Shown in pieces: positions 4,035 to 44,306 of a DNA stretch of 64,000 nucleotides. The notes under the pieces were generated by a model. It ran no database searches. It saw only the letters and a program-made list of their open reading frames with translations, and was not told where the DNA came from. The stretch's first letter is position 1. Each line of letters begins with the position of its first letter. The DNA is from Patescibacteria group bacterium. GTDB taxonomy: Bacteria > Patescibacteriota > Dojkabacteria > J137. Where the stretch lies: contig BOLA01000001.1 in the NCBI GenBank assembly GCA_016861265.1, positions 852,136 to 916,135 on the forward strand. The letters are read 5' to 3'. The translations under genes were made by a program, and so were the position numbers.

Positions 4035-4747
4035 TGTCTAGAAAATTTATTGCATTTCTAATTACAGTTTTTATTATTGTGGTACTTTCGTTGGTTGGTG
4101 TAGGTATTACATATATTCTTAGAGTTACTAACATTGACAGTAGTGTCAGAAATTTTCTAGAACGAAGAGATGTAGTTTCCTACACCACGGTTACTACTGT
4201 GGTGTCTTCTCCAGTATCTGATTTGGATAAAATTCCAGATAAAATAACAGTTCTAGATGCCACAACATCAAAACTAACATCGGAAGTATTAAAATTAACA
4301 TTTAATTACCAGTCCCTTGTAGGAAACTTTTCAGTACTTACAAATAAAAAGGGTAACAGAATATCAATTAAATCGGCAGAACAGGCTGAGGCTGATTCTC
4401 AGTATGTAGAATTATATTCTAAAAAAACAGATGAAAGCTTTGAGCAGGCCATAAATAGAATATTTTTAGATGGCGTGCCGGAAACTTTCTGCTACTTTAA
4501 ACCAGAAGCATTAAGTTATAAATTCGACAATAAAAACTATATCTTTGCTAGTATTATTGCTGGTACAGGCGTCAATCCGGAACAATGCCCTACTCCTTAC
4601 ACACGTAATCCCAATTCTGGCACCAGATTCTTTTTCTACGACCCTGCATTCCCTGATAGATTAGGATTTATTTATGTAGGAAATACATTTATTCCGGGGT
4701 CCACGGCATCTTCAAATTGGTTTGAGTCACTTCAATTTATTCAATAG
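4034..4747 (+). CDS. hypothetical membrane-anchored protein
   Basis: It has an N-terminal TM anchor. The start overlaps the stop of the upstream gene (translational coupling). Confidence 0.4.
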   Translation: MSRKFIAFLITVFIIVVLSLVGVGITYILRVTNIDSSVRNFLERRDVVSYTTVTTVVSSPVSDLDKIPDKITVLDATTSKLTSEVLKLTFNYQSLVGNFSVLTNKKGNRISIKSAEQAEADSQYVELYSKKTDESFEQAINRIFLDGVPETFCYFKPEALSYKFDNKNYIFASIIAGTGVNPEQCPTPYTRNPNSGTRFFFYDPAFPDRLGFIYVGNTFIPGSTASSNWFESLQFIQ

Positions 4748-4806
4748 CTTTTCAAACGATAGGTTGTATATTATAATTATACACCGCTCGTTTATGGAGG
4801 TGTTGA

Positions 4807-20628: not shown

Positions 20629-21726
20629 TTATGATTTGATCTGGTGTGCAAATTTTTGTGCTTGTTTACTAATCAGGTCTGCATCTTCAAAATAATTAAT
20701 CCCGATTGCACTTTTAACTCTCTGTGTCGTTTGGGAAGCCACATTACGTGCTTCTCGGCTGCCTTCAAGCAATATTTTATAAACTTGTGGAATGTTTTTT
20801 TGATATTCCTCTCTCCTAGTACGAAGTGGCATTAATTCTTCTTGAATAACATCATTTAAGAAACTTTTTATTTTCGTATCGCCTAGACCTCCTCTTCTGT
20901 AATGATCTTTCAGCTCATCTAAATTATTATAACCAGCTAGGTATCTTTGTAAATGATTAGGTTTACAAAAAGCATCTAAATAAGTAAAAACTGGATTATT
21001 TTCAACAGTGCCGGGATCTTCTACTTTTAAATGATTGGGATCTGTAAACATCCCCATAATTTTTTTCTTAATTTCCTCTGGCGAGTCTGCAAGGTAAATA
21101 CCATTATTTAAAGACTTGCTCATTTTCGCTTTCCCATCTAAGCCTGGTAATCTGCTACAAATATCATTCTCTGGTAATGATGCATTTGGTTCTACCAAAG
21201 TTTCTCCATAGATAGAATTAAAACTTCTAACAATTTCTCGTGTTTGTTCTATCATCGGTAGTTGATCGTCACCTACTGGAACAATATTAGCGTCAAATGC
21301 TGTAATGTCAGCAGCTTGGCTCACTGGATATGTCAAGAATCCAGCAGGAATACTTTTATTAAAACCTCTTAACTTTATTTCTTCCTTTACAGTAGGATTC
21401 CTTTGTAATCTTGCTACTGTAACTAAATTCAGAAAATAATATGTTAACTCACATAGCTCAGGAATCTGGGACTGAATAAAGATAGTAGATTTATTGGGGT
21501 CAATACCACATGCTAAATAATCTAATGCTACCTCTATTACATTTTGTCTTACTTTTTCAACATTGTCTGCGTTATCAGAAAGTGCCTGAGCATCCGCGAT
21601 CATAATAAAGATACCATCAAACTTTCCAGAGTTTTGCAATTCAACTCTTTTCTTTAATGATCCAACATAGTGACCTAAATGCAGTTTTCCTGTGGGCCTG
21701 TCCCCAGTTAGAATAATATTTTTCAT
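20629..21726 (-). CDS. trpS: tryptophanyl-tRNA synthetase (canonical HLGH-type)
   Basis: It carries TGDRPTGKLHLGHYVGSL (HIGH), KMSKSLNN and VPVGDDQLPMIEQTREI, and is 365 aa. Confidence 0.8.
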   Translation of the reverse strand: MKNIILTGDRPTGKLHLGHYVGSLKKRVELQNSGKFDGIFIMIADAQALSDNADNVEKVRQNVIEVALDYLACGIDPNKSTIFIQSQIPELCELTYYFLNLVTVARLQRNPTVKEEIKLRGFNKSIPAGFLTYPVSQAADITAFDANIVPVGDDQLPMIEQTREIVRSFNSIYGETLVEPNASLPENDICSRLPGLDGKAKMSKSLNNGIYLADSPEEIKKKIMGMFTDPNHLKVEDPGTVENNPVFTYLDAFCKPNHLQRYLAGYNNLDELKDHYRRGGLGDTKIKSFLNDVIQEELMPLRTRREEYQKNIPQVYKILLEGSREARNVASQTTQRVKSAIGINYFEDADLISKQAQKFAHQIKS

Positions 21727-21738
21727 AAAGAAACAGTC

Positions 21739-22935
21739 TTAATTCTTATATAAAAATAGTTCGTTGTATGTATCAATATCTTTTTCATATTTCGATTCTT
21801 CCCAAAGGGTTTTAATTTCAATAAAAAACTTCAAATATTCATACTTTATTTTAGTCCAATCTTCGTAATTTTGTTCTAGATTTTCAAAAGCACTTTTGGC
21901 TTCTATTAACTTGTCGGGACTCCAATTAGAAGCAAGTATCATCATTTGTAAAATAACCTCCTCATTTCTCTTCCCACAGTCAATAATTTTCCTATGTAAT
22001 TCCTCTTCGCTATCTCCAACATTAATAGAAGAGTCTGGAATGCTTTTTGACATTTTAACATAAGGGAAAAGACCACCAATAAGCTTTCCATACAATGCAC
22101 CGATTTCAGCATCTTGATGAACCAAGCTATCCACGCCTCCACTCTTCACTTTCATCCTATTAAGTGCAATTCTTGCTAAATACGGATGGTGATGTTCTTC
22201 CAATCCTACCGGCACTATTACACCTCGTTTTTTGTCACGAACTATCGGTAGGATAATATCTGTCATTGTATATGTCCTACTCACCATTTTTGAGAAATCG
22301 TTCCCAAGCAATTGTAATCTTTTATACATATCGTTAGTTACTTCACGATTTTCGAGCAAATCTTCAGTACTTAAAACACTAGAAACAAGTGAAAACACTC
22401 GGGAATGATCATGAAAGTTATGTGTTCTAATTTCACCGTTTTTTTCATTAAATCCCAATTTCTTAATAAAAGATATAAACTGATAGGAATTTCTTATTAG
22501 CTCATTTAATGGCTTTTGTCTTGAATTTAATGCACTTAATTCAGAAATGATTATATGAGTATAAATACCTGTTTGTTTTTGAAGTTCAAGTACTCTAAAA
22601 ATAGAAGAAAGTGTACCGGCCGTTGGGGAATTAGTAGGACCAAATCCTGTTACAATAGCTAACTCGGTCGTAGGAATTTTATTAAAGATTTCTAAATTAT
22701 CGTAACACAAATATTTAGAATTTAATTCATTGTGCTTCCCATAGCCATGTAATTGAATATTATTAGGAAACTTAACATACTTAAAATCTTCGATTATTTT
22801 GCCAAGTTTGTTATTGGAATATTCCAAATCCTTTAATGCATGCTTAAGATCATTTGCAACTTCTTCAATCGATTTATTTTGTTTCTCTGCTATTTCTTTT
22901 AATTCATCATTTGACAAATTTAAATTGGTTTTCAT
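21739..22935 (-). CDS. divergent TrpRS/TyrRS-family class I aminoacyl-tRNA-synthetase-like paralog with a degenerate HIGH motif
   Basis: KMSKSIPDSSINVGD and VPVGLEEHHHPYLARIA align to TrpRS. The HIGH position reads TGFGPTNSPTAGTL, with no His. A coiled N-terminal extension of about 100 aa is present. Confidence 0.5.
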   Translation of the reverse strand: MKTNLNLSNDELKEIAEKQNKSIEEVANDLKHALKDLEYSNNKLGKIIEDFKYVKFPNNIQLHGYGKHNELNSKYLCYDNLEIFNKIPTTELAIVTGFGPTNSPTAGTLSSIFRVLELQKQTGIYTHIIISELSALNSRQKPLNELIRNSYQFISFIKKLGFNEKNGEIRTHNFHDHSRVFSLVSSVLSTEDLLENREVTNDMYKRLQLLGNDFSKMVSRTYTMTDIILPIVRDKKRGVIVPVGLEEHHHPYLARIALNRMKVKSGGVDSLVHQDAEIGALYGKLIGGLFPYVKMSKSIPDSSINVGDSEEELHRKIIDCGKRNEEVILQMMILASNWSPDKLIEAKSAFENLEQNYEDWTKIKYEYLKFFIEIKTLWEESKYEKDIDTYNELFLYKN

Positions 22936-23300
22936 GATTCACAATAGAATGTTTATAAATAAGTATTAAACGCTACACTGTAGCGAAAATTTAACATTTA
23001 TAAGATGTAGTGTCAATTTGTTTGTATTTCATATGAATTCAAAAAATCAGACATTAATGCCATATTTTTTTATTAAAGAATTTATAATTTATTAAATTTC
23101 TTTAAAAAACTACAATAATAGATGTTATTGCAATTTCTTACAAAAATATACATACCCCACTAATTCCATTTCTATCCATTGGTTTGTCCAAATATCAAAA
23201 ATAAATACAGGTACTTTCTTCCCAGATTATATATTTTTCTTGACAAACATAAAAAAGATGGAATAAGATTAGTTAGTTCCTAAATATTAATACTATAAGT

Positions 23301-24104
23301 ATGAACATAAAAGAAGTGGTGATTGAGCCAATATATAAATTATTTAGAGCAGGTCAAAACGCATATTATGAGGCTGGGTTAAATCGTTATCAAGGAGATA
23401 AGTATGACTTAACAACCTTACAAATATCAAATTACTTTTCATTTAGGACTTCTCCGTTTAATGTAGATTTAAGGAAGTTAGCATACTATACAGAACATCA
23501 AATGATACCAGCTCCTAAAAGAGTTGGTATCAATTCTTTTTTAGGTGGAAGTATAGGTAAATATAAATACAAAACATCATTAATGCTTTGGTATATTGGT
23601 GAACTTAAAAAAAGAGGCATTAAAAGTCAGGATGAATTAAGACTACACATTTATAACTACTTTCACACTGAAAATTTACCTCCAAAGCCTGTTTCAGATA
23701 CGCCTTTTGCTGAAAGGTATATTTATACTTGGAGAATAAGCAAAATAACACCTGTACTTTTACCTGAATTTGAAGACTTTAATATTTATATGGAAAATGA
23801 AGAGCCAATTCCTGCAAAAAAGGCCACCTACTATTTTGAAGGTAAGCCATTTGATCAAATTCTCTTCTTTGAACGAAACCTAACAGAAAAAGAAAATGAA
23901 TTTCTTAAGATCTTACGAAAAAACAAAGAGTTTTTAAGTGCAAGTGGTATCAAAACCTATATTCTCAATTCTAAAGAAGAAGTTGAACAAAAAGACATTA
24001 TGGATTTATTCGTGTTTAAAGACTATCCAATAGTTTCAGATGATGATGATAAAAAATCTTATCGAGATTTACTTAATAAAAAATATACTTTTCAAAATAT
24101 ATGA
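23301..24104 (+). CDS. hypothetical protein (element cargo)
   Basis: A 267-aa ORF preceded by a long AT-rich leader. Confidence 0.4.
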   Translation: MNIKEVVIEPIYKLFRAGQNAYYEAGLNRYQGDKYDLTTLQISNYFSFRTSPFNVDLRKLAYYTEHQMIPAPKRVGINSFLGGSIGKYKYKTSLMLWYIGELKKRGIKSQDELRLHIYNYFHTENLPPKPVSDTPFAERYIYTWRISKITPVLLPEFEDFNIYMENEEPIPAKKATYYFEGKPFDQILFFERNLTEKENEFLKILRKNKEFLSASGIKTYILNSKEEVEQKDIMDLFVFKDYPIVSDDDDKKSYRDLLNKKYTFQNI

Positions 24105-24346
24105 TCAAACAAAACGATGAACTGTATGAAATAATATCTTTAAAGGTAAGAAAGCATAATTTGTTGAAAATGATCAAGCCTAAAGCAATTGAAAATCTAA
24201 TCAAGATGATACTTTGGCAGAAAGATGGGGTAATAACACTGATAATTAATAATGCGGAAATTACTAAGTTAAAACACGATTTTGAGATACGTTTAAATGA
24301 GGAAGGAGATTTAAAGACTGACGATAAGACAAAATTTATTAAGTAA
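24101..24346 (+). CDS. small hypothetical protein
   Basis: An 81-aa ORF overlapping the upstream stop (coupled). Confidence 0.3.
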   Translation: MIKQNDELYEIISLKVRKHNLLKMIKPKAIENLIKMILWQKDGVITLIINNAEITKLKHDFEIRLNEEGDLKTDDKTKFIK

Positions 24347-24477
24347 TTCTAATTAACCTTAGCTAACTTGATTGTTTAGAGAGGTCTAAGTTTCAGAAAA
24401 AAGAACATGTTTCTTAATCTGAGATTTGGATCTCTTTTTTTTGTATATATTTTACTTTTTAACAATTTACCAAAAAT

Positions 24478-24876
24478 ATGTCGCTAAACACACCAAAGAT
24501 CATTAAGAACTTTTTGAATGCTAATGAGAAAACAGAGAATAACTTTATCACTGCACTACTGTTAGATAAATCACTATTATTAAAAGAAAAAGAATTGTTG
24601 CTTTTTATCTTTCATTTAGCAAATCGTTCTGGTGATTTAAAAGTAAGTACCAAACAATTGGCTACATTTACTCTTACAGATTTAGAAAAACTCAGGATTG
24701 CCTACAGTGCTAATGCGAGTATAGCTTTTCAAAAACTTCACAGATTAGAAATTATTAATTGGAATAAAACTGAACATACCTTTGAAATCAATAACGACTG
24801 GATAGATGAAATATTAACTAGAGATCAAAACACTAGACTAGAGTTCTTTTACAAGTTATTACTCAAACAAAACTAA
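24478..24876 (+). CDS. hypothetical protein
   Basis: A 132-aa ORF whose stop overlaps the start of the next gene. Confidence 0.35.
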   Translation: MSLNTPKIIKNFLNANEKTENNFITALLLDKSLLLKEKELLLFIFHLANRSGDLKVSTKQLATFTLTDLEKLRIAYSANASIAFQKLHRLEIINWNKTEHTFEINNDWIDEILTRDQNTRLEFFYKLLLKQN

Positions 24877-25811
24877 TGTCTGAAAAGGTTGTTTTAAAAA
24901 TCTCAAAAGAGTTAGATAGAGGTAAAGCCTTTGTGCAAATTTTATCTAACCTAATTCGTAGTCCTGAAATTTCAGATTCAGAATTTAGAACATTCTTAGC
25001 TTTACTTGATTTTAAATGGAATGGGCAATCTAAAATCTTTCCGTCATTAACAACTCTTGAAAAAATACGTCATAAAAGCAGAAAAAGAATTGTTGCTCAT
25101 TTAAAAGGTTTAAAACAGATAGGTTTAATCTCTTATCAGAAATCCTCTGAAAGAAATAGTAATGAATATTTTTTTAACAAGATTGAATTTGAAGCAATAG
25201 ATAAAACGCCACTAGTAGACAAAAGTAAACTAGTGTACAAAACTACACCATCGCTAGGGTCGAAAAGTACACTACAGATAGTGGCGAAAACTACACCCGA
25301 AAGATACGAATATAAGAATACTAAATTTAATAAGACGTTAGCTGAAAACGACTTAAAAAAAATTGCTGATAAAAAGTCACAACGAAGTGACTTTGGAAGT
25401 TTCAAAGTTGATCCCAAAACAGAAGATTTTACTAAATACAATCCAGAAGCACTTGAATATGCAAAGTTACTGGACAATCTTGAAGATATTAAGTTTTATC
25501 AAAACTTGCTTGATGAAAAACAATTTACTCACGAAGAATTGCAATCTGCTTTCTGGAAAACATGTAACGAAATAAATACAGATAAAAAAGATGGCAAAAT
25601 TTTCTGGAAAAAGCCAGGAGCTTTATTTAATAAAAACTTGAAAGCAATTTTAGAACGAAAGAAACAAATTAAGAACGGCTTAGATAAATTAACAGACAGT
25701 AAAACAATTCCTAAAGAAAAAACAGAAAACGAAAAGTTGTCAGAATTTAATAAAAAACGAAATCATGCACTTAATTTATCTCAGAAATTACTAAATAGAG
25801 AAGGAATATAA
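24876..25811 (+). CDS. putative HTH replication-initiator-like protein (tentative)
   Basis: The N-terminal winged-helix-like segment (RTFLALLDFKWNGQSKIFPSLTTLEKIRHKSRKRIVAHLKGLKQIGLI) is followed by a charged region. It lies immediately upstream of the origin-like repeats. Confidence 0.35.
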   Translation: MSEKVVLKISKELDRGKAFVQILSNLIRSPEISDSEFRTFLALLDFKWNGQSKIFPSLTTLEKIRHKSRKRIVAHLKGLKQIGLISYQKSSERNSNEYFFNKIEFEAIDKTPLVDKSKLVYKTTPSLGSKSTLQIVAKTTPERYEYKNTKFNKTLAENDLKKIADKKSQRSDFGSFKVDPKTEDFTKYNPEALEYAKLLDNLEDIKFYQNLLDEKQFTHEELQSAFWKTCNEINTDKKDGKIFWKKPGALFNKNLKAILERKKQIKNGLDKLTDSKTIPKEKTENEKLSEFNKKRNHALNLSQKLLNREGI

Positions 25812-25904
25812 CTGATGAACGAAGTGATGAAACTATGGTGAAACTGCTAATCCGAAAAAATGACTATTTTACGATCTTTAAAAACCTACCAAAGCGAGAG
25901 CCAC

Positions 25905-26165
25905 TAAACCTTACTAACTCCGAACGGGAGTGATTGGGTGCCCTCCTATCGGAGCCCACCCAATCACTCCCTCGACAAAGTTACACGTTGTGTTGTTTGT
26001 CGTCTGAGTTAGTAAGGTTTAGTAGGGTAGGTAGTAGGTAGTTAGTAATAGTAAGTTAGGTAGGATAGATAGAGAAGAATAAAGAAGAGAGATTGAGAAG
26101 ATAGAGATTTTAGGTAGGTTAGTTTTTAAGTATTTGTTGAGATTTATTATTTTTTAATTTTTTTA
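25905..26165. repeat. nested inverted repeats plus C-free purine-rich repeat tract (candidate ori, oriT or att region)
   Basis: The 18-bp inverted repeat ACTAAACCTTACTAACTC...GAGTTAGTAAGGTTTAGT encloses a perfect 15-bp hairpin GGGAGTGATTGGGTG-(16 nt)-CACCCAATCACTCCC (about 25926..25971) and the 7-bp CGACAAA...TTTGTCG. About 150 nt follow with almost no C on the + strand, containing TAGGTAG-like and GAGA/AAGA repeats. Confidence 0.6.
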
Positions 26166-26170
26166 TATAA

Positions 26171-27148
26171 ATGATTGGTTCAAATATTTTAAAAAGTTCT
26201 GATGTGGAAATTTTGTATACAGTGAGTATTTTTAAGTTTATTCCGCTTAAAGTTTTGGCTGATATTTTGATTGCTAAGAATATTTATAGTTTTTATCAAG
26301 GAGTTGCCAGAAGTATTACAAGACTCGAAAAACAGGGGTTGTTAAGAACTAAATACTATGCAAATCATTCAAAAATCATATTTTTATCAAAGACAGGTGC
26401 AGGAGTTTTATCAGTGAATAAAGGTATTCCACTAGAAAACATTAACTGTCCTGACCGAATTACTAATGTAAATTTCTTTGCCATTGAACATACAATTGAA
26501 GTGTCTAAATTGTTTTACATATTTTCTACTGAGTGCGAAAGATATGGATTTAAGCTAGTAGAATTCCAAGGAGATGCTTATCAAAGATACATATATTCTT
26601 TTAAGGAATGGATTAACAATGACCAAAAGAAAATAACTAAATATGTAATTCCAGATGCTTTTGTAAGAATTGATGTTGGAGATGAAAAGATTTATGAATT
26701 TTATGTTGAATATGATAAAGGTTCTGAATATTCAAAAGATATTGCAGAAAAATATCAAAAGTATTTTGAATACTATTCCCTTTCAGAAAAGTACAAGCTT
26801 AATAACGATGATAAGTTTCCATCTGTTTTATTCATAACGACAACTAAGAAAAGAATATTGAACCTTATTCCTGATATGCCTAAAAAGGATGGGAATAGAT
26901 ATGAGCTATACGGAAACAGAGGCTTAAGGAATGTAGTATTTCAAGGAATTGAAAACGCAAAGGGAGATACGAATCACGATAGTTACAGAATTCACAAGTT
27001 TTTGAAAGATGAAAACAAGTTTCTGTTCATTGAGTACGAAAGCCTATTAAAGAATAAGTTTGAAGCTACTTGGTTAAACTTTATTCAACAGCCAATTTCC
27101 TTACATTACTTTTTAACAAATCCATTTATTGAACCTAAATCTTATTGA
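26171..27148 (+). CDS. replication-relaxation-family-like protein (tentative)
   Basis: It has an N-terminal wHTH-like region (ILYTVSIFKFIPLKVLADIL...ITRLEKQGLL), as in the PF13814-type plasmid proteins. Confidence 0.35.
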   Translation: MIGSNILKSSDVEILYTVSIFKFIPLKVLADILIAKNIYSFYQGVARSITRLEKQGLLRTKYYANHSKIIFLSKTGAGVLSVNKGIPLENINCPDRITNVNFFAIEHTIEVSKLFYIFSTECERYGFKLVEFQGDAYQRYIYSFKEWINNDQKKITKYVIPDAFVRIDVGDEKIYEFYVEYDKGSEYSKDIAEKYQKYFEYYSLSEKYKLNNDDKFPSVLFITTTKKRILNLIPDMPKKDGNRYELYGNRGLRNVVFQGIENAKGDTNHDSYRIHKFLKDENKFLFIEYESLLKNKFEATWLNFIQQPISLHYFLTNPFIEPKSY

Positions 27149-27407
27149 TGAAAATCTAAAGTTTATAAATCAATTTGATATTGATTCTAAAGAAATTTCT
27201 GCTGAAAGAGCCAGAGAAATCTTGGGTTCAAAGGCTGACGGCTTGAATGATGATGAATTACAGGTTGTTATAAATATGGTGATGACTATGGCTGAAATAG
27301 CTGTCGGAGATTTTTTTAATAAAAAAGTACCAGAAGATGAAAAGAAGTTATATAATTTAACTGCAAATCAATCAAAAAGGGTAAAACGAAAGAAAACTAG
27401 ACTTTAG
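27129..27407 (+). CDS. small hypothetical protein
   Basis: A 92-aa ORF overlapping the upstream stop. Confidence 0.3.
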   Translation: MNLNLIDENLKFINQFDIDSKEISAERAREILGSKADGLNDDELQVVINMVMTMAEIAVGDFFNKKVPEDEKKLYNLTANQSKRVKRKKTRL

Positions 27408-27509
27408 TCTGTTATCTTTACAGATAAGGGGCTACTTGGAACAGTCTTTACCCAAAGATTGATTTGCACCAGGTAGTCCCTTTTCTGTTTAGTTTTTACT
27501 ATTTAAAAT

Positions 27510-29084
27510 ATGAACAAACCAAAAGCAGTCATTTACACTAGAGTTTCATCAGATAGACAGATTGATAATACAAGTCTTGCCGATCAATTAAAAAAAGGTA
27601 AAGAGTATTGTGAGCGAAGAGGCTTAGAATTCGTTACAGAATTTAGAGAAGAAGGAGAATCAGCAGAACTAGCAGATAGAACAATTTTGAAAGAAGCATT
27701 GAATTATTGTGGCTTAAAGAAAAATGATATTACATATTTTCTAGTATTTAAGTTCGATAGATTCTCTCGTTCTGTTGAAAACCACCACCTAATTAAAGCT
27801 ATATTAAGCCGTAGTGGAGTTAAATTGATCTCAATGACAGAAGAGACACCTGACACTCCGGCAGGAAGATTAACAGAAAATATGCTTGCAACAATAGCCC
27901 AGTTTGATAACGAAGTCCGAACTGAAAGATGTATTAATGGGATTAAAGCAAAATTAAGACAAGGTATTTGGGTTTATGATTCTCCACTTGGATATATGAA
28001 AGATACAAACTTTAAAGGTAGTGGTGCTAAACCAGATATTCCAGATCCAGCAAAGTTTGAAATTGTAAAAGAAGGATGGAAAATGATGCTAACTGGAAGA
28101 TATAGGTCAAAAGATGTTTTAGAGTTTTTTCATAAAAAGGGATTAAGAAATAGGTATGGGAATAAATTAATTGCACAATCTGTTTCAAAGATTTTTTACA
28201 ATAAGTTCTATGCAGGATTATTGTTTGTTGATAGTTTTGGAATTGAAGAAAAAGGACAGCACCAACCAATGATTACGCTAGATGAATTCTATGCAGTTCA
28301 AGCAATTTTGGCTAAATACAATAATGGAAATCAAGTTAAGCATTTAGGTTACAATCCAGAATTTCCACTGAATAAAACAATTAAGTGTACTTGTTGTGGG
28401 AAATTTATGACTGGTGCTTGGTCTAAACAAAAAGGAGTATTTGGATATTACGCGTGCAGAAGACCCGAATGTAAGGAAAGAGATAAAATCAAGAAAGCTG
28501 ATGCAGAGACTTCATTTATTGAGCTATTGGAGAGAATTACTCCATCTCAAGAATTAGTAGATTTATACAAGGAAGCAGTTACCAAAGTATATTTGAAAAA
28601 ACTTCGAGAGAAAGAAGATATACAAAGGCATATTAAAAGTGAACTAAATGAGCTTGAGGTTAGATTATCTAAACTTGAAGAGCTTGTTGAAACAGATGTC
28701 TATTCTGTTGAAAAGTTTAAAGAAAAGTCTAAACCACTTGTACATGAGATTGCAGTTAAGAAAGTATCACTTTCTGAAACAAACATTGATTTATATGATG
28801 CGGAGGAATGTGTTAATTACTCCGTAAATTTTTTACAACTTTTACCTAAATATTGGATATCTCTGTCTGTAAAGGCAAAACATAGATTGCATGAGGTACT
28901 TTTCCCCGAAGGTCTAATTCTCGAAAATGGAAGAGTTACAACCAAGGCATTAGCCCAGTTCTATAATGATATTGAAGCAATTTCAGATGGTAATGTCCCA
29001 TCTGGTACACCCGGAGGGAGTCGAACCCCCAACCTTCGGTTCCGAAGACCGCTGCTCTATCCATTGAGCTACGGGTGCGCATAA
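27510..29084 (+). CDS. large serine recombinase/integrase
   Basis: It has an N-terminal resolvase domain with the catalytic Ser (AVIYTRVSSDRQ), a recombinase domain and a zinc ribbon (CTCCGKF...YYACRRPEC), followed by a coiled coil. The 3' end reads through tRNA-Arg. Confidence 0.8.
   Translation: MNKPKAVIYTRVSSDRQIDNTSLADQLKKGKEYCERRGLEFVTEFREEGESAELADRTILKEALNYCGLKKNDITYFLVFKFDRFSRSVENHHLIKAILSRSGVKLISMTEETPDTPAGRLTENMLATIAQFDNEVRTERCINGIKAKLRQGIWVYDSPLGYMKDTNFKGSGAKPDIPDPAKFEIVKEGWKMMLTGRYRSKDVLEFFHKKGLRNRYGNKLIAQSVSKIFYNKFYAGLLFVDSFGIEEKGQHQPMITLDEFYAVQAILAKYNNGNQVKHLGYNPEFPLNKTIKCTCCGKFMTGAWSKQKGVFGYYACRRPECKERDKIKKADAETSFIELLERITPSQELVDLYKEAVTKVYLKKLREKEDIQRHIKSELNELEVRLSKLEELVETDVYSVEKFKEKSKPLVHEIAVKKVSLSETNIDLYDAEECVNYSVNFLQLLPKYWISLSVKAKHRLHEVLFPEGLILENGRVTTKALAQFYNDIEAISDGNVPSGTPGGSRTPNLRFRRPLLYPLSYGCA
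29004..29078 (-). tRNA. tRNA-Arg (anticodon UCG) with encoded CCA
   Basis: It folds manually as acceptor GCACCCG/CGGGTGT, U8A9, D-arm GCTC-AATGGATA-GAGC, anticodon arm GCGGT-CTTCGGA-ACCGA and T-arm GGGGG-TTCGACT-CCCTC, then A-CCA. Confidence 0.75.
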
Positions 29085-36884: not shown

Positions 36885-39800
36885 ATGGGAGACAAATTTT
36901 TGAATTTAAAAAATGAACTAAAGAATAAATTAATTGAAAGATTACCAATAATATTTATTGTAATAATTTCAATACTATTCACCTACTCCTTCATTAAGGA
37001 GAGTATTACGGTAAATATACAAACAGGAGCAGCTATTCCCAACTCTATAGTCAATTCTATTGTAGTGGCATTAGATAGTACAGTTAATCCAAATGGAATA
37101 ATTGCCGCAGCAGTAGATATTTCTGAAAAGGTACAAAACGGAGAGGGAATAATTGTAAAAGATGTATTCGATAGGTGTGTAATTCAAAGTGATAACAGAG
37201 TCAGCGATGGATTTTACCAGCCATTCGATACAAAAGCCGGTGTAAACAATGGTGATCCTATTGGAGATGGTAATGGTGGCGACGAAATTAGAAAATATTT
37301 AAGATACGACAACAGATCTTCGTTGGATTTAGAAGCAAGTCAAAACGTTGTAATTTTAATGAAAGGAACAGGACCAACTGTTCTGGCATCGGCAATTAGG
37401 AATATAAACGAAAAAGGAATGATACCTATAATCAGATTAGGTGTAATTGACATGGGAGATTATCCGTTTCAACTAACTGAAGATGCAAGTGAAATGGTTA
37501 ACTACTTTACACAAGTAGGTGATGAATTAATGCGTGAAAATAAAGGTTGGAAGGCCGTATTATCTTTAGGGCCTAATGAACCTACTACAGGAGGTGCTGG
37601 AGAAGGTAATATTCAGGTTATGGGTATTCCTGATTACCAGACAATGGTACAAAGAGAAAATCAGGCTGCTGATCAGTTACAAAAATACAGAGTTGTTAAT
37701 GGTGGTCCATTCTGGCTTGCACCTGCCATCTTTAATGGAACGGCATCTTATCAGGCAAATGGAAGAGAATATTCTCAAGATGTATATAGGCACTTGTATA
37801 TTGATGGAGAAGATACGAGTACAGAAAAAGACTACTGGAAAAGAAAAAGCATTGACCCAGACCTATTCGACGTGATGCTTGCAAACATATACATGAATGT
37901 GGCAAAACCTGCATATAACTTTTATAAGGAATTTGGGTTAAAAGAATATGTAGATAAAAGACCTGGATTAGTAACAATCGTTACAGAATTTGGAATAGAT
38001 CCATTCTCACCATCTTTAGTTACTGCTGATTTGAAACCTGACTTTAAGGCGTTCTACGAGGATCCTAAGGTAGAAGGAATAAATTGGTTTAGAGCACTTA
38101 AAGATAAGCCAGCCCCAGCCCCTGCTCCTTCACCAGAGCAAAGTGCTACCCTTGAGGACTTTATTAAATTCTTGGAACAATCCGGGAAGACGGCTAAAAA
38201 AATATCTCTAAAGAACTTTTCTTGGGTTAATTGCGCTTTGGGTACAACAATAGAACGAACTTCTACATCTTCAAGTGGTTCCAGCAGCGGAACTTTAAAT
38301 CCAACAACAAAGGGTGGTTTAAATGAAGGAGAGAACGCACCAGGCGGTGGTGCAACAATGGATACAGCTAAATCTTATGGGTTGGCAGGCTATAGTTTAG
38401 CAATTATAAACAATCCAGGCGACAGTGCTGCAGCAATTCAATTCATTAGCGAGTCAATTTCTAAAGGCTTCACACCGATTATACGTTTATGCGTAAACGT
38501 ATCTGGTTCATGTGGGTTTAATCTTTCCGGAGGCAGAGCCGATGATTTAGTGAGCTTTTATAATGCTGTATCACAAGGTGCATCTGGTAGCTTTATTGGA
38601 ATTGTGGGACCTAATGAACCTAGCACCGAATGGGGTGTATTTAATGCCTCGAGTATGGACGAAGTAAAAAGAGCTGCCGTTACAGCAGCAAAAACAATAA
38701 ACAAGAATGGAAAGATGCTGATTGGTACCCCAGCATTTAATCTCCAAACTCAGGATTTAACACAATTCAAAAGTGCATTTGGCGAAGCTAAGTTCGATGT
38801 TTTAATCGGCAATGCCTACAATATTGGAACAGCAAAAGCGGATGAAATTGCGGGCGAAGCCATCTCAACTTCTAAAGCAAACGGACTAAAATTTATTTTG
38901 ACGGAAACCGGTGCTATAAAAGGTGCTGCAGAAGATTTTGAAACTACAATCGGAAGATTATGTTCCCAAGTAGATGGATTCATGTTATTTAGATCTCAGG
39001 AAAGTTCTCCGGGGGGGAATTATGAGAATGTACCCCAGCCATTCGGGCCTGAAAAACTAAAGGCAATTGCTGCTGCATGCAATGGTAGCAACCCAACTTC
39101 CAGTAACGATAGTAATTCTACCGATAGCCGAGATGATTCATCAAATTCTGCTATTCAATGTACATCCGGGGTGGCAGATGACCAGATCATATTCCTAGGT
39201 GACAGTCTAACTAACGAACTTGTAGCAAAACAGTTTCCTGGCTCAAAAAATTTAGGATTTCCAGGAGCCAGCACTGAATGGTTAGTACCTGGATCCGAAC
39301 CAGCCAACGATAAGTCCGATCAATTAAATACGACTTTAAACGATCCAAAGTATAAAGCAATTGTAATTGAATTTGGAACGAACGACTGCGGAGGAGTAGA
39401 TGTAGGTAGGTTTAAACAAAATTTAACAACAATTATTAATAATATTAAGAATGTTAATGCTGAAGTAGACATTATCTTGAGTACAATACCGAGAGCGCAT
39501 AAAGCATGTTCAGCAAGTACAATAGACAGTTTTAATGCAGCTATTAACGAAGTTCGTTCATCTACAGGAGTTTTAGGCAGGGAACTTGGAGGTTCATTAT
39601 TCGATGAATCTGACTTAAGATCAGGTGACGACAGACACTTAACCGACGAAGCTTATGCTGAAATTGCACAAATAACCAAGGAGGCATTAGGCGGAGTTTG
39701 CGTAGGATCTAATACAGGAACAACTACAGAAACTACATTAGGTGCAGGATCTCTTGCACTTAGTTGTGGTGTTGAAGAAGACAAACCTGCTGAATTCTAC

Positions 39801-42800
39801 CAAGGCAAGAATGCCGCAGCATTAAGAGTTAGGTGTGCAGGAGGATCATGTACAACAAAAATGGTGGGAACAATCGAGATCGAAGCACCAACAAAATTAT
39901 TCTCTACAAATACTCCAAATGGGACCATGAGATTAAGATACGTACCGGTTTCTCAAGTTGCAGCAAGTCAATCAAAAACTGATGGCTACGACGGACTAAA
40001 TATGTTTGCCGGAGAAATAAAAATTGGTTCCGACAGTTATCCTCTACCGGGTTTGGGTAGTGCAATTAATTCAGCTACAGAGATATTAGAGGAAACAATG
40101 ACGTCGGGTGATCCTAAGAGATTCTCCACTCCAAGCGGACAATCATTATTAAAATGGACAAGAAATAAACTTGAAATACAGAGTCAACAGGGAAAAACAA
40201 TCGGTGTTGTTGGCGAGAAGAATGTAGGAGGGTTCACCACGAATGCATTCTCTATACAGGAAAAAGAAGGAAATAGCCTAGAGTCTATAAATGAAAGAGC
40301 TGTTACTTACGATGGCTTAACATTTAATAACGATGCTGGTTTAGCTGATTGGAGGAAAAACTTAATGCCTTATGACCCTTCAATTGCATTCCCAACCTAT
40401 ATTGCACCTAAAGCTTGTCAGCAAAGTGAAATGAAATTTATTAATAATTTAGATAATTACGTTACTGGTCCTGAATTAGTGGTAGAGGAAGAAAAAACTG
40501 TTACTACAAATACAACTCAGCAAATCTGTTGGATGTATGCCGGAAGAAGTATTCCAGGAAGAACTCCATATATGTCTGGTGACGGTGTTAAGACTTGCGG
40601 TTATATTTTTGATACAAGAATATTCTCAGATGCAAATATAGATGCAATTTCACCAAGAAAGGGTAAGCCGTTACATAGAATCTACGAGACTGTATATAAC
40701 GAACTATTGGGTACTTATGTAACAACAAGTCGAATTGAAGAAGGCAATTGGACTTGTCAGGAATTATTTACCGGGCAGGCAAATGGTACAGACGGTGTGG
40801 ACGAAGATGCAGAATTCAAGAATGTTGAAGCACCTAAGGTATTACCAAATTGTGACTTCGACGATTATTATTTTGAATTATATAAAGGTAAACTATCAGA
40901 TGCACCAGGCAATCCTGCTAGAAGCGGTAGATGCGATATTCCTGCGGATCTAGTTTCCTGCTTAAGATACGATGCTCAGGATTCAGACGAGGTCTATATT
41001 CATACCGAAAAATACCCAATAGCAAGTAAAGTTAAAATTCCAAAAATCTACTCTGCTCTTTACGGCCTTTACGATAGATTACAAACAATGATGAGTAACC
41101 GAAACATGAAGATGGTATTCAGGGAAAATATTGGAATGAAATTCAAGGTAAACTCAAAAATTCGAGACGCAAACGAATCCATTAGTGCAGTTCAATATGA
41201 CTTCTCAACACAGTACGATAATTATTATCAACCTGAATTAATTGATAATACTTTACCTTTGGCATCAAACAATCCTACAAAGACTCAATTTCAATATTTT
41301 GATGATCTAGGTTACCTGGATATTTTGCAGGAATATACTGTAGCCTATGCTAATGAACAAGCAATAATAGGAGATCATGTAATGGATAATCCTTTTGTAG
41401 AAAAAGGAATCTTTAACCCACTACAGGATAGAACAAAAATTGTTGCAGGAGGAGAATCTAATTTAAGTCTAGCAAATCCAATACTAACCTGCGATCAAGT
41501 CGAGATCTGTAAAAACTATACGTATACTGAACTTGAAACAACTTTCGGACCAACAATGGCGCTTAGGCTTTGTCCATTAACCGAAAAACTACCGGTTGAT
41601 GCTAAGAAGAACTGTATAACAAATATTTCAGATGATAGATTTATTGATAGGTTGAATACAACGCTATGTGCTAGAGGTTTTAATGTAGACGAAAACTGTC
41701 ATTTTCAATGTTCAGTTTCAGGTCAAGGTGGTAATAACAGTGGTGGTAATGGTACAACACCCGTAATTATTAATGGTACATATTCAACGCTATTTCCTGT
41801 AAGTAAATCTAGACAAATTCCAAACTGTACTGAACCTGCAAGTGTTCAAGTTGTAAATACTGATAGACCTGTACAAAACGATGAAGGTATGACCAGCATT
41901 AGTCTAATACCTGTTGCCAAGCAGGCGCTAGAACAGATGATGGCCGCTATGAAACAAAACGATCCTTCTACCTACGCAAAATGCGGATTTGCATATGGCT
42001 ACAGAAGTGCCGAAATGCAGGGTACGTACACTTGTGGATCCGGTACGGCATGTAAGTGTCACAGTGAACATCAACTAGGTACTACTGTAGACTTTAGAAA
42101 TGCCGAAGATATGTCTGCCGCAAATAAGTTTAACGGTTCAGCATGTAGTAATTGGCTAAGGTCTAATGCTGCTAATTACGGATTTATTCAGTCTTATACT
42201 GGTGCAGATCCAGATTACGTTGCAGAATCGTGGCACTACAGATACATTGGAATAGAAGAAGCTCAGAAATTCAAGGCACAAAGTCAATATACATACTTAA
42301 GAGCCTATCTTGAAAGTATACAATCGGGAGGTAACTCTTCAGGGAATGGTAATACATCAAATATTCCAGGAGACTTTAAAGTAAGATATCCTACGGAGTT
42401 CGATACCTTAACCGGAAATTACGGAACTAAGGGAGGTTATGCAACCCATACTGGTGTAGATATAAGAGTTTCGGGGGTTGGAGGAACTATATTCGCTGCA
42501 GAATCCGGTACGGTTCTTTATGCTGGACCAGATAACGAAAATAATGCTAACTATACATGCGTAACCGATTCTAATAGCAATAAATATAGTCCATTATGTC
42601 AACAATTAGGTCTAAGTAATATTGGTGCATACGGATTCATGGTAAAAATACTACATCCAAATGGTAAGGTAACCCTATATGCCCATAATTCCGATTTAAA
42701 GGTAAAGACTGGAGATTGTGTTAATAAAGGGGATTTAATTGCACTAGCAGGCAGTGTTGGTAATTCTACTGGCCCACATAGTCACTTTGAAATTAGAAAG

Positions 42801-44306
42801 AACTCTTCATGTTCTTGGGACGGTAACAGTTTGGGAGTATGTACTGAACCACCAGAAGATTATCTTGTTCCAGGTGGCGGAAACACTTCGGTATTTACTA
42901 GCGATCAAATTAAAAGTGTATGTAATGGTGTGCTGCCACCTACAGATCCTGGAACGGGTGATGGGGATGAAATCGTATGTAGACCAACAGGTGAAGATGA
43001 AATTCCTACAGATGATAATCCAAAGCAGACACCTGGAGGTGCATTGTGCTTAATTAAGAAAGCAGCAGATTCACTAACTGCTAACGGTATACCTACAAAT
43101 CCATATATGATGTATGCAATATTACATCAAGAAACACAGTCACTATTAGATCCTTTAGCAGGTAAGAATGACTTTATTTGTCCTACAACCTGGGACGATT
43201 GGGCTCTAAATATTGGTAATTTGTCTTCCTTGCCAAAGTGTACAGGTGATCCAAATCAGAAAGCATTTGCGTCATTTAACAGATCGAATCCACCAAATAT
43301 TGATGTAAGAGGATTAACACAGTTCTACTCTGCTACGTTTAATGGGATTATTAATAATTACGATAGCGTAATGACAAATTGCATTAACGATTTAGGTGTA
43401 GATAACACAATTGCAAACAGTATTTGGTTAGATCCATTAAGTAGTCAGCCAGGTAAATTCAGTAGGCATAGAGTTGGAGATGCTATCTGTGCTCAAGCTG
43501 TTAAGTTAATGAACGATGCAAGAACTGCAAATGGAGGCACTTACCTTACAGTGGAAGAATGGTTGAGTAATCCGGAGATAATAAGGCAAACCGCATGTAC
43601 TTATTATGGTGCATGTCAGGACAATTACGAGGTCAATGTATTGAGATACTTTAATGAAGCAGTTCAAGCAAAGGTATTCGACAATTTAGATTGTAGCGGA
43701 AATTCAACCGGTCCAGATCCAAGCGGCGTACTAAGTTGTAATGTTAATACAAGTGCAGCATCTACCACACCCGACTTTAGTAAGAGTGCATTGTCCTGGG
43801 AAGCTTACATTAGAGCTTTAAATCTTGATAATAATTCAAGCTATGTATGGTTTGCAAACCCTAATGGCGAAAGTGACAACCTAAAGCAAAGGTTAATAAA
43901 TAAGCTAGGCAGTGAGTCTGCTTACCAACAGGACTATAATCAAAGATTACAGGTTACTAATGCGTTTATAGACAAGGCCAAGTCATTGGGAATAAATCCT
44001 CAGTTTGCATTAACACTGTGGTTTGAAGAAACTGAATTCTCTGCTGTGGGTAAGGCTGCATTAGGCTGTTTGTATTTTAGAAATGGTACACAAACAACAG
44101 ACATTCCTAGAGATGGTAATCCCGCAAGCCAAATAGCCCACTTAAATCAGCAATTAGAATGTTTAAACACCTATGTTGATGAATTCACGGAGTTTAGACA
44201 ATTTATGTGTACATATTCCGGAGAAGTTGGTAGGCCTAACTGTACGGAATTCAAGAACAATCCGAACTTCCCGAAAAATATTTGCAGATATTACGATTGG
44301 TTTTAA
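36885..44306 (+). CDS. giant (2473-aa) membrane-anchored multi-domain cell-wall hydrolase carrying SGNH/GDSL esterase, peptidase M15 (VanY-like D-Ala-D-Ala carboxypeptidase) and peptidase M23 domains
   Basis: N-terminal TM. GDSL block IIFLGDSLTNE plus DRHLTDEAYAEIA (SGNH block V). M15 motifs CHSEHQLGTTVDFRN and ESWHYRY. M23 motifs YATHTGVDI...HNSDLKVKTGDCVNKGDLIALAGSVGNSTGPHSHFEI. A PAPAPAPSPE linker. An uninterrupted 7.4-kb ORF. Confidence 0.7.
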   Translation: MGDKFLNLKNELKNKLIERLPIIFIVIISILFTYSFIKESITVNIQTGAAIPNSIVNSIVVALDSTVNPNGIIAAAVDISEKVQNGEGIIVKDVFDRCVIQSDNRVSDGFYQPFDTKAGVNNGDPIGDGNGGDEIRKYLRYDNRSSLDLEASQNVVILMKGTGPTVLASAIRNINEKGMIPIIRLGVIDMGDYPFQLTEDASEMVNYFTQVGDELMRENKGWKAVLSLGPNEPTTGGAGEGNIQVMGIPDYQTMVQRENQAADQLQKYRVVNGGPFWLAPAIFNGTASYQANGREYSQDVYRHLYIDGEDTSTEKDYWKRKSIDPDLFDVMLANIYMNVAKPAYNFYKEFGLKEYVDKRPGLVTIVTEFGIDPFSPSLVTADLKPDFKAFYEDPKVEGINWFRALKDKPAPAPAPSPEQSATLEDFIKFLEQSGKTAKKISLKNFSWVNCALGTTIERTSTSSSGSSSGTLNPTTKGGLNEGENAPGGGATMDTAKSYGLAGYSLAIINNPGDSAAAIQFISESISKGFTPIIRLCVNVSGSCGFNLSGGRADDLVSFYNAVSQGASGSFIGIVGPNEPSTEWGVFNASSMDEVKRAAVTAAKTINKNGKMLIGTPAFNLQTQDLTQFKSAFGEAKFDVLIGNAYNIGTAKADEIAGEAISTSKANGLKFILTETGAIKGAAEDFETTIGRLCSQVDGFMLFRSQESSPGGNYENVPQPFGPEKLKAIAAACNGSNPTSSNDSNSTDSRDDSSNSAIQCTSGVADDQIIFLGDSLTNELVAKQFPGSKNLGFPGASTEWLVPGSEPANDKSDQLNTTLNDPKYKAIVIEFGTNDCGGVDVGRFKQNLTTIINNIKNVNAEVDIILSTIPRAHKACSASTIDSFNAAINEVRSSTGVLGRELGGSLFDESDLRSGDDRHLTDEAYAEIAQITKEALGGVCVGSNTGTTTETTLGAGSLALSCGVEEDKPAEFYQGKNAAALRVRCAGGSCTTKMVGTIEIEAPTKLFSTNTPNGTMRLRYVPVSQVAASQSKTDGYDGLNMFAGEIKIGSDSYPLPGLGSAINSATEILEETMTSGDPKRFSTPSGQSLLKWTRNKLEIQSQQGKTIGVVGEKNVGGFTTNAFSIQEKEGNSLESINERAVTYDGLTFNNDAGLADWRKNLMPYDPSIAFPTYIAPKACQQSEMKFINNLDNYVTGPELVVEEEKTVTTNTTQQICWMYAGRSIPGRTPYMSGDGVKTCGYIFDTRIFSDANIDAISPRKGKPLHRIYETVYNELLGTYVTTSRIEEGNWTCQELFTGQANGTDGVDEDAEFKNVEAPKVLPNCDFDDYYFELYKGKLSDAPGNPARSGRCDIPADLVSCLRYDAQDSDEVYIHTEKYPIASKVKIPKIYSALYGLYDRLQTMMSNRNMKMVFRENIGMKFKVNSKIRDANESISAVQYDFSTQYDNYYQPELIDNTLPLASNNPTKTQFQYFDDLGYLDILQEYTVAYANEQAIIGDHVMDNPFVEKGIFNPLQDRTKIVAGGESNLSLANPILTCDQVEICKNYTYTELETTFGPTMALRLCPLTEKLPVDAKKNCITNISDDRFIDRLNTTLCARGFNVDENCHFQCSVSGQGGNNSGGNGTTPVIINGTYSTLFPVSKSRQIPNCTEPASVQVVNTDRPVQNDEGMTSISLIPVAKQALEQMMAAMKQNDPSTYAKCGFAYGYRSAEMQGTYTCGSGTACKCHSEHQLGTTVDFRNAEDMSAANKFNGSACSNWLRSNAANYGFIQSYTGADPDYVAESWHYRYIGIEEAQKFKAQSQYTYLRAYLESIQSGGNSSGNGNTSNIPGDFKVRYPTEFDTLTGNYGTKGGYATHTGVDIRVSGVGGTIFAAESGTVLYAGPDNENNANYTCVTDSNSNKYSPLCQQLGLSNIGAYGFMVKILHPNGKVTLYAHNSDLKVKTGDCVNKGDLIALAGSVGNSTGPHSHFEIRKNSSCSWDGNSLGVCTEPPEDYLVPGGGNTSVFTSDQIKSVCNGVLPPTDPGTGDGDEIVCRPTGEDEIPTDDNPKQTPGGALCLIKKAADSLTANGIPTNPYMMYAILHQETQSLLDPLAGKNDFICPTTWDDWALNIGNLSSLPKCTGDPNQKAFASFNRSNPPNIDVRGLTQFYSATFNGIINNYDSVMTNCINDLGVDNTIANSIWLDPLSSQPGKFSRHRVGDAICAQAVKLMNDARTANGGTYLTVEEWLSNPEIIRQTACTYYGACQDNYEVNVLRYFNEAVQAKVFDNLDCSGNSTGPDPSGVLSCNVNTSAASTTPDFSKSALSWEAYIRALNLDNNSSYVWFANPNGESDNLKQRLINKLGSESAYQQDYNQRLQVTNAFIDKAKSLGINPQFALTLWFEETEFSAVGKAALGCLYFRNGTQTTDIPRDGNPASQIAHLNQQLECLNTYVDEFTEFRQFMCTYSGEVGRPNCTEFKNNPNFPKNICRYYDWF

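Follow-up and report, generated by a model that had tools for sequence, protein, structure and literature searches.

A branched inverted repeat beside a MOBC relaxase gene is a probable origin of transfer of small tRNA-integrating elements in Patescibacteria

We analysed a 64,000-nt stretch of the genome of an ultra-small Patescibacteria group bacterium from the Dojkabacteria (assembly GCA_016861265.1, contig BOLA01000001.1, positions 852,136 to 916,135), hereafter the window, with attention to a nest of inverted repeats followed by a C-free tract. An earlier note on this DNA had placed the nest and the tract between an initiator-like gene and a replication-relaxation-like gene, and had proposed a plasmid or phage replication origin, a nick site within an origin of transfer (oriT), or a recombination site. 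The nest and tract are present at that place, flanked by an initiator-like HTH_36 gene upstream and a Replic_Relax gene downstream, and of the proposed functions the evidence favors the nick site. The nest is probably a cis-acting DNA-processing site, an oriT-type nick site, of a small integrative mobilizable element, and it is best read, with moderate confidence, as the oriT belonging to a family of small Patescibacterial mobilisable elements, which integrate at tRNA genes and have relaxases of the MOBC type. We base this reading on the adjacent MOBC gene, the linkage between the structure and relaxase genes in related loci, the syntenic and anatomical parallel to oriT2 of plasmid pAD1, and the selected structure of the repeat.

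The Patescibacteria (candidate phyla radiation) constitute a large share of bacterial diversity, and no oriT was described for them in the literature that we searched. Nearly all of them carry type IV secretion systems. One survey, which recovered relaxases from just ~100 genomes, with MOBC as the commonest class, took these systems to have purposes that are probably not conjugation (PMC12102498).

The nest occupies a 359-nt intergenic gap between the open reading frames (ORFs) at 24876-25811 and 26171-27148, and this gap is made up of four blocks. The nest itself is a Y-shaped three-way junction in which an outer stem (P1) surrounds two side-by-side hairpins (P2, or hairpin A, and P3, or hairpin B), and not the set of three concentric repeats described in the earlier note. 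The outer repeat is real and measures 21 nt instead of the 18 bp given there; it is lengthened by CCTACC/GGTAGG pairing at 25884-90 / 26027-33. The middle repeat was confirmed as 15 perfect bp (25926-25940 / 25957-25971) with a 4-bp inner stem (25943-46 / 25951-54, loop TATC), the two being continuous through a CC/CC internal loop. The 7-bp pair CGACAAA/TTTGTCG also exists, as a second hairpin beside the first. Folded as single-stranded DNA (ssDNA), the structure reached -49.9 kcal/mol compared to -16.6 +/- 3.0 for shuffled sequences (z = -11.1), and folded as RNA it had z-scores of -8.6 on the + strand and -8.4 on the - strand. When 72,556 plasmids and 50,697 phages were searched with the region by BLAST in distant mode, the sole match was a spurious A+T-rich one in Bacillus. 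Hairpin A contains a pyrimidine-pyrimidine mismatch (25941-25942 / 25955-25956) that takes the form CC/CC in the window, whereas relatives of the GGACTCC-TTC-GGACTCC type have one C.C only. This mismatch was conserved in most families, and the dyad is therefore deliberately imperfect at that point.

The 19-mer ACCCAATCACTCCCTCGAC was present as a single copy in the window, with 0 expected by chance. We scanned 185,579 species genomes for exact copies and recovered 43 matches, 37 of which were in Patescibacteria, often with several per genome, plus one contig from a viral collection. The six matches from outside the phylum (L020, L027, L032, L042, L043, and L056; Selenomonas, Desulfosporosinus, and others) were discarded as coding coincidences: they encode H-P-I-T-P-S-T close to the N-terminal end of the alpha subunit in 2-oxoacid:ferredoxin oxidoreductases and can mislead motif searches. 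Every informative relative of the element belonged to the Patescibacteria. The same architecture was found in every copy, and the structure with its invariant core was conserved across Saccharibacteria, Dojkabacteria, and Nomurabacteria.

Relaxase genes were linked to the junction in both directions of search. A PF13814 gene started 70-110 nt downstream of the 19-mer, on the same strand, in 23/38 DNA-found loci, and these homologs shared 27-45% identity with that of the window, apart from one close relative at 84% (L025). We removed ascertainment bias with a second search, of metagenome contigs by relaxase protein alone. Among the protein-found loci with relaxases at least 40% identical, 10/11 contained the exact 19-mer 92-97 nt upstream of the gene (185 nt in one). 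More distant, high-G+C members of PF13814 from other phyla lacked the 19-mer in this protein-based search. When the gaps of elements found via the relaxase protein were aligned, the P2 proximal stem and the junction that follows it were identical even at 39-43% relaxase identity, and the rest was unalignable.

Sequence divergence has preserved the pairing. P1 fell into 19 sequence families with a mutual identity of only 33%, all of which had long complementarity. RNAalifold on a MAFFT alignment found the invariant stem only, because the variable arms do not align, and a comparison of cognate and non-cognate duplexes was used in its place. Cognate P1 arms had a mean duplex energy of -36.1 kcal/mol versus -20.9 +/- 6.4 kcal/mol for non-cognate arms, and the cognate arm was the best partner in 11/19 families and among the top five in 19/19. 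Complementarity conserved across all of these families indicates that the structure is under selection. The P2 proximal stem was invariant in 43 sequences, with one compensatory change from G-C to T-A, while the distal part of P2 and P3 varied in length and sequence between families and kept their pairing. The TGTGT in the P3 loop was nearly invariant on a stem whose sequence varied among families. In the protein-found loci the P2 3' arm and the junction were invariant and the 5' arm varied at 3 positions, sometimes breaking a pair, so the 3' arm is constrained as a sequence and not just as a pairing partner. An invariant arm beside the nick site (nic) is the usual recognition pattern of HUH relaxases, which serves here as an analogy.

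The adjacent gene encodes a MOBC-family protein with an intact nuclease motif. Its start codon lies 148 nt after the outer stem, and its product matched PF13814 with 43.2 bits (E = 5.9e-11; cut-off 25.3 bits) and PHROG 9381, "replication initiation by nicking", with E = 2e-12. PF13814 is equated with the MobC (MOBC) relaxase superfamily and its PD-(D/E)XK fold in PMC5357655 and PMC3424549. Residues H107, P161-D162, E180-x-D182, and K194 were invariant in 12 sequences, namely the window protein, ten Patescibacterial homologs, and TraX of plasmid pTEF1; this pAD1-type TraX also matched PF13814. An AlphaFold2 model (pLDDT 86.4) had an N-terminal winged helix followed by an alpha/beta core, for which Foldseek returned weak matches (E = 0.01-0.03) to MarR-type winged helices and the restriction enzyme PfoI. 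A profile search of the PDB found no relative of the protein, and tblastn against the 72,556 plasmids found no match. The HTH_36 protein encoded upstream matched PHROGs named "replication initiation protein / O-like" with E = 1e-6 to 4e-6.

The locus resembles oriT2 of pAD1 and pAM373, two plasmids from Enterococcus faecalis, as seen in pTEF1; what we say of pAD1 comes from reviews and from direct reading of the pTEF1 sequence. Both systems have a PF13814 relaxase with a winged helix and a PD-(D/E)XK motif, and both have a nested inverted repeat of comparable size and stability upstream of the relaxase gene (142 bp and z = -12.2 in pTEF1; 150 bp in the window). Direct repeats about one helical turn apart flank the inverted repeat on the side away from the relaxase gene in each case, five with 12-nt spacing in pTEF1 and three in the window, giving the same order and orientation of short repeats, large nested inverted repeat, and relaxase gene. 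The pTEF1 order continues outward to a gene resembling a type IV coupling protein, then oriT2 and traX, and in the larger Patescibacterial relatives the site likewise has a coupling-protein-like ATPase gene on one side and the relaxase gene on the other. According to a review, the five direct repeats that TraX binds are 70-120 bp away from nic, and a covalent intermediate has not been observed (PMC12857230). The two sites differ in that there is no DNA or pairwise protein similarity between pTEF1 and the window, and the pTEF1 repeat is strictly concentric while that of the window is a three-way junction with two adjacent hairpins. The distance from the site to the relaxase start is 150 nt in the window and ~600 nt, with a small ORF between, in pTEF1. 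Unlike the window, pAD1 has no C-free tract, and pAD1/pTEF1 is a conjugative plasmid rather than a 5.8-kb tRNA-integrated element with a serine integrase.

Streptococcal IME_Class_8 (serine integrase, MobC PF13814 relaxase, and VirD4) has the same pairing of integrase and relaxase in a compact integrated element, and passages of PMC5357655 on this class give no oriT for it. The window element differs from it in host phylum, in the presence of initiator-like genes, and in having no coupling-protein gene.

Taken as an oriT, the site would work as follows. The serine integrase would excise the element from the tRNA-Arg gene, as its attachment (att) sites suggest, and the large inverted repeat would extrude, or form on an unwound strand, as a three-way junction. 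The MOBC relaxase would be positioned by its winged-helix domain, with the direct repeats at 25813-25846 as a possible anchor. It would recognise the invariant arm and junction (CACCCAATCAC-TCCC-TCGAC) and nick one strand, either at that place or within hairpin B, whose GT-rich loop is a second candidate nick site. The nicked strand would be passed to a type IV secretion system supplied in trans, and the circle may in addition be copied by a rolling-circle mode primed at the nick. We infer the nicking, its position and strand, and the transfer itself from the features described above.

The site was common to three kinds of loci: integrase-bearing mini-elements, relaxase-bearing elements, and larger loci with ATPase, sortase, and M23 peptidase genes. 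The larger loci had the order M23 peptidase, HTH_36, 864-aa ATPase, junction, MOBC, and sortase. The ATPase was N-terminally membrane-anchored and HerA/FtsK/TrwB-like, and the junction in these loci was ~2.8 kb from the initiator-like gene and still beside the relaxase gene. A compact class without a relaxase had the order junction, XRE-type repressor, 121-aa ORF, RepO-like ORF, 73-aa ORF, and serine integrase, next to a tRNA; the compact L030/L038/L040 type thus keeps the junction. Loci L029 and L045 also kept the junction with the relaxase gene gone, in the order junction, 92-aa-type ORF, integrase. That these relaxase-less elements retain the junction is what one expects if it is a cis site open to use in trans. 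Many mobilisable elements carry only an oriT (PMC11389934).

Several observations weigh against an oriT. Elements of the L007 type (L007, L008, L009, and L065) have a 48%-identical relaxase and an integrase without the junction or the HTH_36 gene, making them and L029/L045 reciprocal deletion variants. Distant PF13814 genes of other phyla had no large inverted repeat upstream, and this feature is therefore not a universal trait of the family. An initiator-like gene (HTH_36 or RepO-like) was present in every junction-bearing element examined except four uncharacterised loci, so co-occurrence alone cannot separate an oriT from a replication origin. The invariance of the 19-mer is partly a matter of ascertainment, since the DNA search demanded an exact match. 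The window protein has no pairwise similarity to TraX, and their homology consists of the shared Pfam profile and motif. The repeats upstream of the junction were individually significant in the clade of the window only and not in other families. The assignment of the ATPase as a coupling protein is weak (TrwB_AAD_bind 19.4 bits vs a cut-off of 20.5; BLASTP to the pTEF1 protein E = 0.009), and type IV secretion genes were not seen among the window ORFs tested. To our knowledge, MOBC biochemistry is known from essentially one protein of a single plasmid.

If the site is a real oriT, it provides a sequence handle for finding mobilisable DNA in Patescibacterial genomes, and a direct test of conjugation in these organisms becomes possible. 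Together with the tRNA-targeting serine integrase it would supply parts for genetic tools in newly tractable organisms, and it would be a second, very distant example for MOBC relaxases. The value of the finding lies in the phylum and in the testability of the idea.

Table 1 Features of the integrated element and its intergenic junction (window coordinates).
Feature	Position	Strand	Description
Integrated element, ~5.8 kb	23213..29008		Left end ACTTTCTTCCCAGATT; right end ...CCCATCTGGTAC, abuts tRNA-Arg 3' end
Replication-initiator-like gene (HTH_36)	24876..25811	+	Pfam HTH_36 E = 6e-6
Three direct repeats, candidate relaxase-binding site	25813..25846		TGATGAAC(GAAG) / TGATGAAAC(TA) / TGGTGAAAC(TG); spacing 11-12 nt; sequence reading and autocorrelation
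Whole three-way junction, proposed oriT core	25884..26033	none	ssDNA and RNA folds; architecture common to >40 related loci
P1 outer stem, 5' arm	25903..25923		Pairs with 26003-26023; 21 nt, 95% complementary
P2, hairpin A	25926..25971		Proximal stem arms GTGATTGGGTG / CACCCAATCAC, CC/CC internal loop, distal stem, loop TATC
19-mer ACCCAATCACTCCCTCGAC	25958..25976	+	P2 3' arm and junction (TCCC)TCGAC; candidate recognition/nick region
P3, hairpin B	25973..26002		Stem CGACAAA/TTTGTCG (25973-79 / 25996-26002), GT-rich loop
P1 outer stem, 3' arm	26003..26023		Pairs with 25903-25923
C-free run	26005..26180	+	176 nt, zero C
90% A+T block	26120..26170	+	Conserved in clade; abuts relaxase start codon
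MOBC-family relaxase gene (Replic_Relax, PF13814)	26171..27148	+	N-terminal winged helix and PD-(D/E)XK nuclease core
Large serine integrase gene	27510..29084	+	Resolvase, Recombinase, Zn_ribbon_recom domains; PHROG integrase E = 2e-67

A replication origin or single-strand initiation site of the excised circle is the alternative that fares best, and we consider it unlikely but worth keeping in view. The HTH_36 or RepO-like initiator would bind the repeats at 25813-25846, and either the A+T block would melt or the ssDNA-folded junction would recruit primase or RNA polymerase in the manner of sso and ssi sites on rolling-circle plasmids. The position of the region directly downstream of the initiator-like gene, the three repeats after its stop codon, the 90% A+T block at 26120-26170, and the name of PHROG 9381 all agree with this. 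So does the initiator-like gene found in all classes of junction-bearing elements, relaxase-less compact ones included. The adjacent winged-helix gene, short direct repeats, and very A+T-rich block are also what the locus shares with iteron origins (Rep_3 plasmids, lambda ori). However, the window has three repeat copies of 8-9 nt where iteron origins have at least four of 17-22 nt, the period of the tract is 4 nt without iteron-sized repeats or helical-turn spacing, and no DnaA boxes with up to two mismatches were found in the intergenic region. The junction also follows the relaxase gene in relatives: the larger (class-2) loci have a 2.6-kb ATPase gene between it and the initiator-like gene, and two other genes separate it from the RepO-like gene in the compact elements. 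Moreover, the core is identical in loci whose initiator-like proteins are only 23-33% identical, which would be unusual for an initiator-specific origin. The single-strand sites ssoA/ssoU, ssi, and F Frpo resemble the junction as large folded structures with conserved unpaired bases among variable paired stems. They differ in being strongly strand-specific, where the strands of the window fold equally well, and the linkage here is to a relaxase gene rather than a rolling-circle Rep gene. The conserved RSB and CS-6 motifs of ssoA were not seen on reading the sequence, for which no formal search was made.

It is rather improbable that the nest is a structured RNA, whether within the HTH_36-relaxase transcript or as a small RNA in its own right, with the C-free tract as an unstructured leader. 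Such an RNA might influence how stable the mRNA is or how it is processed, control translation of the relaxase, or serve the enzymes of the element as a cofactor. Since the genes on both sides of the junction are on the same strand and no terminator or promoter consensus separates them (the promoter scan found none at the nest), the junction is probably transcribed. It folds strongly as RNA on either strand, its stems are maintained by compensatory changes, and the unpaired CUCCCUC resembles an anti-Shine-Dalgarno sequence; the downstream relaxase genes, on the other hand, have no Shine-Dalgarno sequence to mask. A search of Rfam 15 at gathering scores and at E <= 5 gave nothing relevant, with best scores of 12-14 bits in 25780-26200 versus cut-offs of 40-48, and only two tRNAs in the window passed the gathering scores. 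Helices of diverged RNAs usually show G-U enrichment on one strand. In P1, GU pairs were rare and similar on both strands (55/674, 8.2%, on the + strand and 39/663, 5.9%, on the - strand), and total energies were equal (-766 vs -775 kcal/mol). Fold energies, GU counts, and 1x1 mismatches together showed no asymmetry and left the strand undecided, and this symmetry of pairing fits a DNA-level repeat. The junction also persists where the downstream gene is unrelated or on the opposite strand.

A further reading, to which we give little weight, is that the junction acts as a folded single strand, either a transcript or transferred or displaced DNA, and is a structure-specific substrate or cofactor for the PD-(D/E)XK nuclease or the integrase. 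It could be a branched-DNA "lock", read as by Holliday-junction nucleases, or an element-encoded mobility RNA, with the C-free tract as an unstructured loading zone. If true, this would mean that relaxases can recognise their substrates in a new way, and it would be evidence of DNA being moved by the secretion systems of Patescibacteria.

We judge a recombination site, whether a serine-integrase attP or a site for relaxase-mediated site-specific recombination, to be very improbable. Hairpin A, an imperfect dyad of ~46 bp, is as large as a serine-integrase att site, and TraX of pAD1 reportedly recombines two copies of oriT2 (PMC5714925). For the window element this option, which the earlier note had left standing, is excluded: the junction is intact in mid-element, and the element ends map to 23213 and ~29008, where the att sites look nothing like the nest. 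The distance between the half-sites of hairpin A varies by >20 bp among relatives, a misfit for a serine recombinase. The third point in favor is a fusion in L050, at 4663-4754 on the - strand, where the 3' end of a tRNA-Ala(ggc) gene continues at ..CAGGTCC|ACC.. directly into the right-hand portion of the junction, which comprises ACCCAATCACTCCCTCGAC, P3, and the P1 3' arm. The structure has no left half there, and no second half-site was found within 8 kb. Such a fusion may have been left behind by (relaxase-mediated) recombination, in which case it would mark a break point within the 3' arm of hairpin A.

The weakest alternative, an ordinary intergenic terminator and low-complexity spacer without specific function, draws on the low-complexity tract with its 4-nt period and on hairpins that follow a stop codon, and it is barely credible given that the terminator scan was empty across 25812-26170, no T-run follows any stem (P1 is followed by AGGGTAGG), the 150-nt branched structure has an invariant core across three Patescibacterial lineages, and C-avoidance in the tract survives 13-33% divergence.

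The remaining blocks of the intergenic gap flank the proposed oriT. The direct repeats begin right after the HTH_36 stop codon, outside the region covered by the earlier note, which missed them. Their best lag was 11 (9/10 matches, shuffle P = 0.02), and they were kept in all close relatives in the alignment. We regard them as a candidate binding site for the winged-helix domain of the relaxase, and they would be a better counterpart of the relaxase-binding site of pAD1 than the C-free tract, for which period and side are both wrong. A second block of ~40 nt, moderately conserved, was seen 35-90 nt 5' of the junction in compact and ATPase-linked classes (L030, L038, L040, L024, L035, L021, L062, L048, and L059). 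Its consensus is near GATTGCCTACTGGTT..TCAACCAGAAGCAACC, often with GNAAC-type words ~10 nt apart, and in compact elements it lies at the left element end.

The C-free tract is as strand-asymmetric as first described (GC skew +0.89 to +1.0) and longer than the ~150 nt reported. It is the longest C-free run in the window, where C has a frequency of 0.166 and the next longest run is 65 nt. This second run (26659-26723) is within the relaxase gene, 480 nt downstream of the main tract. The description of the tract as iteron-like did not hold up. A degenerate tetranucleotide tract, (TAGN)n/(GATA)n/(GAGA)n, occupies 26034-26119, it is periodic at 4 nt alone (z = 8 for the autocorrelation at lag 4) with nothing at 10-22 nt, and Tandem Repeats Finder returned only three weak two-copy arrays of period 7-10 (scores 32-33). 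The tract was restricted to the close clade of the window, comprising 8 elements with relaxases 82-88% identical, in which the junction lies ~190 nt from the relaxase gene compared to ~90 nt elsewhere. Clade members shared 67-87% identity over the tract, with 81/159 aligned columns variable. C nevertheless made up only 8/1136 aligned bases and 7/97 minor states (binomial P = 0.006), and C-avoidance on the + strand is therefore maintained, through selection or because slippage keeps renewing tetranucleotides that lack C. Our guess is that the tract serves as a spacer or leader which, being unable to form G-C pairs, remains unstructured beside a very stable junction, in the relaxase mRNA leader or in ssDNA. 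The A+T block is probably a promoter or translation-start context, although the promoter scan found no sigma-70 consensus in it.

The host element contains, in order, ORFs of 267, 81, and 132 aa, HTH_36 (311 aa), the gap, Replic_Relax (325 aa), a 92-aa ORF, and the large serine recombinase. Homology with relatives in different chromosomal flanks begins at 23212-23213 and stops at 29027-29031, and the right end meets a tRNA-Arg(tcg) gene at 29003-29078 on the - strand. The integrase ORF crosses attR and the whole of this opposite-strand gene, giving a protein of 524 aa compared to 504-516 aa in relatives. The last bases of the tRNA-Arg (..GT-ACCA) come from the element, and the first acceptor pair becomes G1.U72. 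We compared att sites and tRNA targets of the window element (23213/~29008) with those of L001, L006, L007, L012, L029, L036, L038, L040, L047, L051, and L060. In window-type elements attL and attR have only an AC core in common, which is what a serine integrase should leave. The attP rebuilt from them (...CCCATCTGGT-AC-TTTCTTCCCAGAT...) is unrelated to the inverted-repeat nest, and the nest was accordingly rejected as the attP of this element. No circular contigs of excised elements were found.

Relatives of the element abut tRNA-Leu, tRNA-Ser, tRNA-Asp, tRNA-His, or tRNA-Glu genes. Integrases 84-97% identical were found at the 3' ends of different tRNA genes (Arg-tcg, Leu-tag, and Leu-taa), and more distant integrase relatives at Leu-caa, Ser, Asp, His, and Glu genes. 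The common target of the integrase seems to be the acceptor/T-arm sequence (..TCGAACC..).

Genes outside the element were housekeeping genes (class I tRNA synthetases, ClpB, SecA, and LepA). Just left of the element, two adjacent genes for class Ib (Trp/Tyr-type) tRNA synthetases lie at 20629-21726 and 21739-22935, the second of which is weak in Pfam (32 bits). Further along the window, a 2473-aa ORF at 36885-44306 combines GDSL lipase, VanY D-Ala-D-Ala carboxypeptidase, and M23 peptidase domains, and is a giant multi-domain protein that degrades cell walls and lipids, plausibly with a link to the epibiotic lifestyle.

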